Shown piece by piece: positions 49,601 through 52,600 of a stretch of 64,000 bases of DNA. Under the pieces are notes generated by a model. The model had not been told where the DNA came from. It was given only the letters and a program-made list of their open reading frames with translations, and did not search any database. Both the position numbers and the translations under genes were made by a program. Numbering within the stretch: the stretch's first letter is position 1; each line of letters opens with the position of its first letter. Source of the stretch: a virus (lineage: Duplodnaviria; Caudoviricetes); the IMG/VR virus record IMGVR_UViG_3300028139_000001, positions 1 through 64,000 of that record; one strand, 5' to 3'.

Positions 49601-52600
49601 AGAATTAAAATTAATAAATCTAAAACTAAAATAGGACATACTGTATGATTAAAATTTACAATAGCTCAACATGTTAGAGATGTTAAGTTACTTAATAGTT
49701 TAATTGACTATTTAGGGTGTGGATCTATAAACAAAGCAAACAACTGTATTGAGTTTGTTGTGACAGGTTTTACCGATATTCGTTTTAAAATTATACCTCA
49801 GCGCAGCAGCCTCAGTCTTCGAGACGTTGTCTCGAAGACGCAGACGCCGAGGTTTTTTGAAAAATACCCTTTTCATAGTGCAAAGAGTTATGATTTTCAG
49901 GATTTTTGTATAGCAGCTAAATTAATAGAGGAAAAAGCTCATTTAACTCAACAAGGTTTTGAAAAATTATTAGCTTTAAAACAAGGTATGAACAGAGGTA
50001 GAGAGGAGTAAAATATGTTAACGGAGATATAATCAATTACATTACACCTTTATCGTTAGCTATCTGAATTTCAGATAACGGAGGTTGAGCTAAACCTGGT
50101 GTAAGAATAGCTACAAATAATTTTAAATTACATGAAGTAGAATTTCTAGTTAAACTTATCCAAAGTAAATTTCTTTTAGAATGTATTATTCAAACAGATG
50201 GGTCAAAATCTTAGAATAACAAAACTATTTATATTAATGCTAGTTCAGTTTCCAGATTGAGGGAGCTAGTCTTGCCTTATTTACATACTTCTATGCGTTA
50301 TAAGCTAGGTCTATAAAAATAAACTTATTTTTTTTTTATAAAGCTCTTCTAATATATAGGTATACGATAGTCGAGAGGTAAAACATGGTTTTACTTCTAA
50401 GTTTCCGACAGGATTCTTAGAAAAAAGGTTAGTCTTTTTGTTAGTGTATTATTTTATTAAAATTTTATTTCTAATAAGTTAAAAGATTAGTTTTTTTTCT
50501 GGCAACACAAGTGTAAACAGTTAAATATTATTATTTTCAATATCACACCTTAGAGGATATCCTAGGTGGCAGATGATAATACAAGACTGTCTGAGATAAT
50601 TATTATTATTTTGGCAACAGACTGGGTCACTTGTGGGTGTCATTATATTGTCACTTGTAAGTGTAAATATATCTGATGCTTATTGTACAGTCGATAGTTC
50701 ACTATAAAATGCTTTATTTAATATTTCTATTTTAGTTATTTGAAATACACTTTGTAGAGAATAAAATAGCCATTAAGATAGCTGAAACCATTTGATAAAT
50801 AGGATCCTAATAAACACCTTTTTCATATGGTTAGAAGCAGTAAATTTAGCGTTTAATTTAAAGTAGGTTAGTTTTGCACCAATGATATTGAAATTACGAA
50901 TACCCAGATTTCTTAAACAATGATGGAGATTTCGTTGAGTTTGATTCTTACTCGGTAGAATTGGATTCGATTCAACTTAAATCTACTTTACCGTCATTTA
51001 ATCAATTAAATGCGTCATTAGATTTACCTAGCCCTCCTACCAGAAATATAACGTATTATCCGGACAACGATCTTTTTGAAAGGCTTGAAAAACAAAAGAA
51101 TCATAATTTATATAAGCCATTTAATTATGATAGTCCTCGTTGAGATAGTGATAGAATACTAGATCAAACTCTTAAAGATAGAGCTGTGTGTCTTGCAGAA
51201 AAATCTGGAAATTTGGGTAAAGATGGTTACTACATAAAGGAATATACTACTGGTTCAAAAAAAGGTCAGAGGGTCGTTTGTTTGAACAATAATAGTATCA
51301 TTGCGGCACGTTTGTTGGAAATAATAAAAAAATAAAATATATAAGCTGTAGGTTAGTTTTGCACCAATGATATTGAAGTTACGAATACCCAGATTTCTTA
51401 AACAGTGATGGTGATTTCATTGAGTTTGATTCATACTTAGTTCCTGAATCTGATTTAGAAGATGGAGCGTTAAGAATGTTAGAAGTAGATAACCGTGTTA
51501 TCCTTCCTGAAATTACACACACTAGATTTATTCTTACTGCTGCAGATGAACTGAGTACCTTTAGCAAGTAACTCTTAACGTCTATACATTATCAAATTCC
51601 GGGGACACCCTAAAGACCTTTTAACTAAACGTTTATCTCAAAAGGTTAAACGTGGCTATGTTAATGACCATAGGTATAGTAATATAAAAAGGTATATACG
51701 AAAGTTAAATGGGTTATCGTGGATCTAAATCACCTAGTTACCTTATTTGGTAACCCTACAATCTTGTAATTCACGCTACAGCTGCAAAGAAAGATTGCTA
51801 GGCTACATCATTATAGTGCAGTAGGTTGTAAAAGAGCAACGAGTAGACGGTAGTGGTCTATAATAGTAAAAAAGGGTTACACTCAACTATTATAGATTAA
51901 GGTATACTCTAGTCGACCTGATAATAGGTCGTTGGGTTTATAGCTATACCTAAAATCTAAATATTCTAATTATTAATTAATTAACGCAATGGAGTAATGA
52001 TTATGTTATTTGGCGGTGGTACATATGGGCAGAGATTTTTAAATAAAATGAAACCAGATTATTAGATCATGGTAAAGTAAGCTCTCGGTTAAGTGTTCTT
52101 TTACTTTACTAGTGGTAAATAAATATTCTGGATACCCTGGACCACGTAATCTAGTTTCTGTGCTTAAATACAGTATTCTTTTTAGAAGAACAAGAACTCT
52201 ACCCAGTATCTATGGTTGTAGGTTTTATTCGGAAAATAACCACAATCGTATCACAAGTGAAGTGATTAATAAAGTACTATCTAATCAAGGTGTTTCTATT
52301 ACACAAAAGGAACTGAATGTTTTGTTAACTATTAAGGGTGTAACTTTTGACTTACCCTTCAATAGTCAAACATTACCAGCTTTATTTGGTTTGGTAGGTA
52401 AACCTAAAAGCAGAAGACCTAAATCCGGTATATATATTTTTACACACTTAGCTACAGGTAGAAAATATGTGGGGTCAAGTAATAGTATTTCAAGAAGATT
52501 AGAACAATATTTTAACCCTAATCCTTTATTTTATAAGGAATATGGTTTATTACTTCCTTTGATTAAAAAAGAAGGGGTAAGTAACTGCTTTTAATCTGGA

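Follow-up and report, generated by a model that had tools for sequence, protein, structure and literature searches.

The window analysed here is the 64,000-nucleotide (nt) stretch that makes up positions 1 to 64,000 of IMG/VR virus record IMGVR_UViG_3300028139_000001. It is AT-rich, with about 29% GC, and under genetic code 4 it reads as a fungal mitochondrial genome. We focus on the first intron of its cox2 gene, in which the 3' splice acceptor, together with the beginning of the following exon, is present twice, and on the small open reading frame (ORF) enclosed between the two copies. An earlier note on this DNA had described the duplication and had proposed that alternative splicing expresses an orphan protein as a Cox1-Cox2 fusion. 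The parts of the cox1/cox2 region placed below lie on the + strand.

According to the ORF list and the Pfam matches, the end of cox1, a linker, cox2 exon 1 and an intron ORF follow one another in a single open frame, 46237-49161. Its exonic part (46237-47004), where the end of cox1 is in frame with cox2 exon 1, matches COX2_TM (Pfam PF02790, 4e-33). A single cox1/cox2 ORF is on record in the Pleosporales (PMC5626475), where we would place the host on account of its own fused ORF. Exon 1 terminates at 47004 with the residues LAEG, on the complete codon GGT and with U at position -1, an end that was aligned in eight loci. The intron that follows is a group I intron of 4357 nt (47005-51361), delimited by comparison with intron-less relatives and inserted between LAEG and HQWYW. 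The closest cox2 relatives (P0005 and P0006, 96%) carry no intron at this site, and a third relative (P0007, 93%) does. The real exon 2, which begins with HQWYWSYEYPDF, occupies 51362-51547 and comprises 62 codons, after which intron 2 begins.

The window contains exactly two occurrences of the 28-mer GTAGGTTAGTTTTGCACCAATGATATTG, one starting at 50863 and one at 51348, whereas 0 are expected from shuffled sequences. It belongs to an ungapped 90-nt repeat (50863-50952 versus 51348-51437; 485 nt apart; 94% identity), which is composed of 14 identical intron nucleotides and 76 nucleotides of exon 2 with five mismatches, at exon positions 17, 44, 51, 58 and 72. Upstream of 50863 and 51348 the similarity ends abruptly. 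The proximal copy of the last 14 nt of the intron (50863-50876) ends in G and is a candidate alternate 3' splice site; behind it lies a pseudo-exon (50877-50952), which repeats exon 2 over its first 76 nt, is in frame both with exon 1 and with the ORF, and gives a Pfam COX2 match over residues 1-33. The distal copy (51348-51361) is the authentic one, as a Cox2 colinear with that of the intron-less relatives P0005 and P0006 needs the distal acceptor. The local determinants of the 3' splice site (P9.0, the terminal G and P10) are the same at both sites, over 14 nt upstream and 16 nt downstream.

Translated with code 4, the first copy gives 25 Cox2-like residues, followed by 127 further codons up to a stop at 51333-51335. 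Since exon 1 ends on a complete codon, splicing from 47004 to 50877 would be in frame. The first CuA ligand, the His in AADVIHSF, is located past exon 2 proper (51362-51547), so that the product of proximal splicing would be devoid of the CuA site. The duplicate acceptor, the partial exon with five differences, its in-frame continuation into a 127-codon tail and the loss of the CuA ligands had all been put forward in the earlier note, and each of these points holds. The stretch 50601-51600 is found exactly in a JGI metagenome contig (L001) and in an ENA assembly (L002), and index entries for the tail ORF come from about 75 blocks of contigs; an identical 1,000-nt stretch in independent JGI and ENA assemblies means that the structure is real. 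The pseudo-exon gives too weak a signal to name its donor, as the Val at DFVEF is common to other lineages and two Asn residues are unique.

The tail protein family and its module

The tail ORF (50953-51335, 127 codons and the stop TAA at 51333-51335) has no Met in its frame, and its conserved domain begins at about 50988 (LPSF...). A word-indexed protein search with the tail returned the self match only; an exhaustive HMMER search recovered 12 relatives, with E values from 2.5e-21 to 2.5e-4, identities of 33-57% and near-full coverage, and the tail is therefore not the orphan it had been taken for. The alignment reveals the family motifs LPSFxEL-SLxxPxPP, DLFxRLxKQ, YxSxxW and LRxRVxELAxxSGxxGKxGYxIKE. 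Every family member whose DNA was fetched is situated between P7 and cox2 exon 2 of the homologous intron, at L008, L009-11, L012, L013, L014, L015 and L053. In the members thus placed, the unit measures 458-524 nt and the ORF stops 5-49 nt ahead of the real acceptor.

AlphaFold2, run with 13 sequences, predicts a helix-helix-helix-strand-strand-helix fold with a pLDDT of 88 and a pTM of 0.70. With this predicted fold, Foldseek returned nothing at E<=0.001, and VIA-align gave no convincing match in the Protein Data Bank (PDB), its best hit being an unrelated kinase at Z 3.7; winged-helix chains appeared there at Z 2.3-2.6, scattered, which is a weak hint at most. Pfam, applied to all 13 members, found COX2 in the leader and no match in the tail, its profiles detecting no LAGLIDADG, GIY-YIG, HNH or His-Cys signature there; PHROGs, the PDB sequence profile and the ESM Atlas likewise yielded no usable tail match, and the tail protein has no recognisable catalytic motif. 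Among seven intact members, Nei-Gojobori ratios of nonsynonymous to synonymous substitution (dN/dS) are mostly 0.2-0.6, with dS near saturation, and the proportion of nonsynonymous differences is lower than that of synonymous ones in 19 of the 21 pairs, which indicates moderate purifying selection on the sequences compared. Judged from alignment and structure prediction, the tail is an undescribed, conserved family of about 115 amino acids, with a confidently predicted fold, and is tied to this cox2 intron.

The sole member with a name is a 'hypothetical protein' in a 19.3-kb contig from an assembly labelled Streptomyces fungicidicus (L015, NCBI GCA_965342465.1). As this contig contains cox2 and LAGLIDADG/GIY-YIG ORFs together with the tail module, it almost certainly represents fungal mitochondrial DNA that contaminates a bacterial assembly.

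The layout of the window, with a copy of the intron end, an exon-like leader, an in-frame ORF and then the real acceptor, recurs in at least nine other lineages. The exon-2 start ahead of the ORF is well kept in the window, L008 and L012, and the leader has decayed in L009, L014, L053 and L013. Past about 30 nt, the leaders of L009 and L014 show 27-29% identity to the real exon, which is the random level. The frame is nonetheless open from the proximal site, through a leader of 29-54 codons, in the window, L008, L009, L012, L014 and L053, and in L013 the open frame extends over 82 codons ahead of the ATG of the ORF. The domain starts with an ATG in L013 and P0129 only, and the ORF of L053, like that of the window, has no Met at all. 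The leader of L013 (4755-5000) contains two decayed exon-start relics (HFTYWIH and HSWYWGIEYTPE) and an in-frame tandem-repeat expansion (EIDLSEIERDLSEKEIDLSEK), and at L012 (1314-1460) the pseudo-exon is partly duplicated in frame, giving three exon-2-like starts at one locus.

The nucleotides at the proximal site are conserved beyond their surroundings. The last 12 nt before it match the real intron end at 12 of 12 positions in the window, 11 of 12 in L008 and L009, 9 of 12 in L014 and 8 of 12 in L012, against 17-40% for the control positions -42 to -13. The proximal G is replaced or absent in L053 (T), L015 (A) and L013. In L009, L012, L008 and L053, the duplicated tail of the intron (GGUUAA/GGUUGG...) is complementary to a segment behind P7 (UUAACC...), and owing to this complementarity either copy could close the same helix and present the next base to the core. 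At L045, both the proximal and the real acceptor (oriented +4233-4245 and +4709-4721) follow AAAAAGGTT directly before CAT, with T and not G; the splice boundary or the terminal intron nucleotide is unusual at that locus.

The host intron and the origin of the module

The ribozyme core, with P3, P8 and P7, lies at 50355-50693. An RNAalifold consensus of seven homologous cores contains 14 pairs with double changes and displays the canonical strand order of group I introns. P3 is formed by CACAAGUG and CACUUGUG, with compensatory changes among the seven introns; the strand AGACUG lies directly 5' of the 3' strand of P3 and is followed by the P8 hairpin and then by ACAGUC (50687-50692), which from the canonical strand order would be the 3' strand of P7. 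The Rfam models miss this core in a cmscan search, even at E<=10. Covariation in P3 and the strand order together identify the host element as a group I intron at the level of comparative sequence analysis, and homologous introns were recovered at L004, L005-7, L009, L012, L013 and L015. Near the 5' end of the intron, an internal guide (47011-47019) consists of GAUG (47011-14), the P10 guide, and GCCCU (47015-19), the P1 partner of the exon sequence AGGGU. This guide sequence, read directly from the DNA, is kept in eight homologous introns and would pair with the exon.

The same intron exists without the module at L004, L005-7, L070/71 and L087, so that presence and absence of the 485-nt unit, which the earlier note had named as a check, do vary. 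In the unit-less introns L004, L005, L070/71 and L087, P7 is followed by one short P9 hairpin (19-29 nt) and then by the exon; the window has 668 nt (50694-51361) in this place. The first part of it is a 169-nt spacer between P7 and the proximal site (50694-50862), which is alignable over its full length with the L009 spacer at about 71% identity and has no counterpart in the native introns. At L050, a spacer of 316 nt with neither ORF nor duplicate separates P7 from the exon in a homologous cox2 intron; it may have been left behind when the module was lost, or it may be an unrelated expansion of P9.

Several features point to a mixed ancestry of the window intron. Its core shares 93% identity with the core of the unit-less L004, and its guide GAUG would pair perfectly with the L004 exon start, CAUC. 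Both exon-start copies of the window (50877-50880 and 51362-51365) read CACC, which leaves a C·A mismatch to its own guide (47011-47014); CACC is the start seen in module-bearing lineages, whose guides are GGUG or GAGUG. This hints that the exon start of the window was co-converted with the module. The real exon 2 differs from that of L004 at three positions (3, 60 and 72), all inside the duplicated 76 nt, a clustering that is merely suggestive, as its chance is (76/186)^3, or about 0.07. Taken as sequence comparisons, these features suggest that the 3' module and the first part of exon 2 were acquired by recombination between intron copies. The intron content of cox2 is strongly variable among relatives of the window; L009, for example, has an extra intron (5632-6270) inside exon 2, after LEVDNRV, where the window has none.

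In the 5' portion of the intron, a mosaic of LAGLIDADG_1 and LAGLIDADG_2 frames fills 47005-50214 according to Pfam, and the first frame is joined to exon 1 and stops at 49161. The mosaic contains a diverged (about 71-80%) internal repeat at a distance of about 1756 nt (47591-48246 versus 49347-50002), and each repeat copy is broken by the same GC-rich palindrome, GTCTTCGAGACGTTGTCTCGAAGAC, at 48065-48089 and 49815-49839, which is translated as an open read-through of 14 residues. Mosaic and palindromes suggest nested invasions by homing endonuclease genes, in addition to a mobile hairpin element. A 20-nt block spanning J8/7 and P7, TGATGCTTAWTGTACAGTCG, recurs in the window at 33379-33398 and also in more than 120 metagenome stretches, mostly outside cox2. 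When further loci were sought with a DNA pattern from the ribozyme core, most of the 80 loci were other introns with the same block, and the block is common to a broader family of related group I introns.

Routes of expression

Any explanation has to accommodate what the sequences show, which is the anatomy of the locus, a module that is conserved and recurrent and is missing from sister introns, and coding constraint on its ORF. We somewhat favour the view that a mobile intron-ORF module is expressed through an alternate proximal 3' splice site furnished with an exon mimic. According to this model, the 485-nt unit and the 169-nt spacer would together make up a selfish intron-ORF module that sits 3' of the P9 region and ahead of the 3' splice site, and whose cargo is the undescribed, presumably folded protein of about 115 amino acids. 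The module would bring its own acceptor mimic, in which the last 14 nt of the intron, with the terminal G, are followed by a beginning of exon 2 that continues in frame into the ORF. On occasion, the ribozyme would most likely take the proximal copy as an alternate 3' splice site, thereby joining the cox1/cox2 exon 1 to the pseudo-exon and the ORF; the ORF would then be translated from the start of the host gene as part of a fusion and probably be cleaved from it afterwards, and distal splicing would supply the functional cox2 messenger RNA (mRNA). Recombination would account for the mobility of the module, and the protein may have a biochemical role. That the product would be a Cox1-Cox2 fusion, as the earlier note had it, follows solely from the fused cox1/cox2 frame. 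The alternative-splicing interpretation of that note is partly supported, and, with odds slightly in its favour, it is the best available explanation.

Proximal expression is favoured because the leaders remain open even where their identity to the exon is random, because the ORF of the window has no ATG and because the nucleotides of the proximal site are conserved. Further points in its favour are the identical local determinants of the two sites, the evidence that the tail is a genuine gene family (12 homologues, a confident predicted fold, constraint in 19 of 21 pairs and a constant position in cox2), and the complementarity by which either copy of the intron tail could close the same helix in L009, L012, L008 and L053. 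It is also favoured by L015, in which the proximal G is replaced by A and the ORF is frameshifted and has lost its stop, the two defects occurring together, although the frameshift, located in a poly-C run, might stem from a sequencing error. Finally, the class of mechanism is documented, in the alternate 3' sites of Podospora and in core creep.

A number of observations weigh against this model. The dN/dS values fall short of 1 by a moderate margin only, and in two pairs they come close to it. The ORF of L053 is intact and Met-less, yet a T occupies the place of the proximal G; another G is available in frame 9 nt farther upstream, on which it would be speculative to rely. The ORF of L045 is degenerate, with terminal traces only, yet its pseudo-exon is almost identical to the real exon, which means that gene conversion alone can keep the copies alike. 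L086 likewise retains the duplication next to a degenerate ORF, whose internal stop is flanked by collinear weak matches. As regards the helices that would position the splice site, the distal one is the stronger in L012 (-16.9 versus -7.1 kcal/mol for the proximal one) and in L008 (-10.0 versus -5.5 kcal/mol), while in the window the partner behind P7 (UUAACC) is mutated and both predicted closing helices are weak. Thermodynamic and partition-function folding of 50694-51400 favours neither site. Decayed members are to be expected from the invasion-decay cycle of a selfish intron ORF, and on the sequences compared, a function of the module is neither universal nor proven.

Some of these points also speak for the strongest competing explanation, which is plausible though clearly the less probable of the two. 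It holds that the module entered by double-strand-break repair or recombination and that the acceptor and exon start were duplicated as a by-product, so that splicing is essentially distal-only, gene conversion keeps the copies alike, and the ORF is silent or decaying in this genome. The retention of the duplication in the decayed members L045, L086 and L015, the missing proximal G of L053 and the stronger distal helix of L012 and L008 all agree with such an insertion scar, as does the patchwork of the window, with its L004-like core, a guide unfit for its own CACC and exon-2 differences confined to the duplicated 76 nt. A scar leaves unexplained, however, why decayed leaders are open and in frame in at least five lineages, why the start codon is missing from most intact ORFs, and why the window combines an intact ORF and a confident predicted fold with a peak of conservation at the proximal site.

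Rather unlikely is a translation of the ORF that bypasses alternative splicing, from unspliced or excised intron RNA, with initiation at a near-cognate codon (TTA, GTT or TTG) in AGG-TTA-GTT-TTG. This motif is conserved and codon-aligned with the ORF, gene callers place the ORF start at its TTG, and L013 and P0129, with their ATG, show that the family can be free-standing. Nevertheless, the ORF has no ATG and its frame is closed by a stop 5 codons upstream, and the motif makes better sense as the 3' strand of the putative helix for positioning the splice site. Moreover, non-AUG initiation on transcripts that have no dedicated 5' leader is unusual in fungal mitochondria.

It is very improbable that the proximal copy is the true start of exon 2 and that the following 485 nt or so are a separate small intron ending in the distal copy. 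The length of the mature mRNA would then be unchanged, and the tail would be an ordinary intron ORF fused to its upstream exon; yet cmscan at E<=10 detects no ribozyme core in 50863-51361, and the proximal leaders of L009, L014 and L053 are too decayed to encode Cox2. Nor do the mismatch pairs between the copies (A/G, A/G, A/T, G/A and T/A) offer an in-register combination of U before the 5' site and terminal G, and a tandem intron or twintron was rejected on the grounds of the missing second core and the missing in-register U(-1)/terminal-G. An assembly artefact from a collapsed or looped repeat, which the earlier note had named as a refutation and which finds some support in the short contig L008, whose end seems to turn round into the unit again, was rejected as next to impossible, given the exact 1,000-nt stretch on independent JGI and ENA contigs (61-kb and 91-kb), the five copy-specific differences and the same architecture in many divergent lineages.

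Known systems and significance

The closest parallel to proximal expression comes from Podospora anserina, in which Sellem and Belcour are said to have described, in 1994, start-less, 3'-located intron ORFs of nad1-i4 and cox1-i7 that are expressed via alternate proximal 3' sites. As in Podospora, the window has a proximal, G-terminated site in a mitochondrial group I intron, upstream of a start-less, 3'-located ORF. It differs in that its alternate site is a literal duplicate, comprising the acceptor and 76 exon nucleotides, and not a short P9.0/P10 look-alike, in that its cargo lies outside the known endonuclease and maturase families, and in that use of the site is predicted only. The Podospora report of alternate 3' splice sites is cited in PMC3073962 and PMC7902536.

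Complex group I introns of the Ophiostomatales provide cases of splicing-mediated core creep, which is reviewed in PMC8393795 and PMC7902536. These introns combine modules, in tandem or nested, that possess a core apiece, and their ORFs are of the LAGLIDADG type, whereas the window has one core for two copies of one acceptor and an ORF of a new family. A different likeness is offered by mobile ORFs in mitochondrial genes, such as the Allomyces atp6 element, which bring a replacement of the gene segment they displace. Like these, the window has an ORF in frame with an upstream host fragment, a downstream duplicate that keeps the gene working, and variable presence and absence; unlike these, its duplicate consists of an intronic acceptor and an exon start, and rescue would be by splicing and not by a replacement C-terminus. 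With intron-encoded LAGLIDADG and GIY-YIG enzymes, the tail family shares its location in an intron, a pattern of invasion and decay, moderate purifying selection and a fusion to upstream exons, which is predicted here. It is distinguished from homing endonucleases and maturases by its size of about 115 amino acids and by the absence of LAGLIDADG, GIY-YIG, HNH or His-Cys motifs, of any Pfam match and of a convincing PDB fold.

The tail protein may play a role in the mobility of the module, in the choice of the 3' splice site, or at the membrane by way of the Cox2 transmembrane anchor. More tentatively, the module might represent a new class of intron-borne gene: a cassette for a small protein unrelated to known homing endonucleases and maturases, which would spread from copy to copy of one cox2 group I intron and, equipped with its own decoy acceptor and exon mimic, would use programmed alternative splicing to divert a share of the cox1/cox2 transcripts to a Cox(1/)2-cargo fusion; we hold this to be possible rather than probable.

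Alternative splicing of group I introns is documented in few cases only, and here we see a recurrent natural design in which the alternate acceptor copies the real one, the exon start included. Two locally identical acceptors at different distances from the core make the choice of the 3' splice site directly testable. Automated annotation of fungal mitogenomes could choose the wrong acceptor and thus mis-annotate cox2 in these lineages. The tail family itself, unannotated, confidently folded in prediction and known from this intron niche alone, is a candidate for a new type of intron-encoded protein beyond LAGLIDADG and GIY-YIG enzymes and reverse transcriptases.

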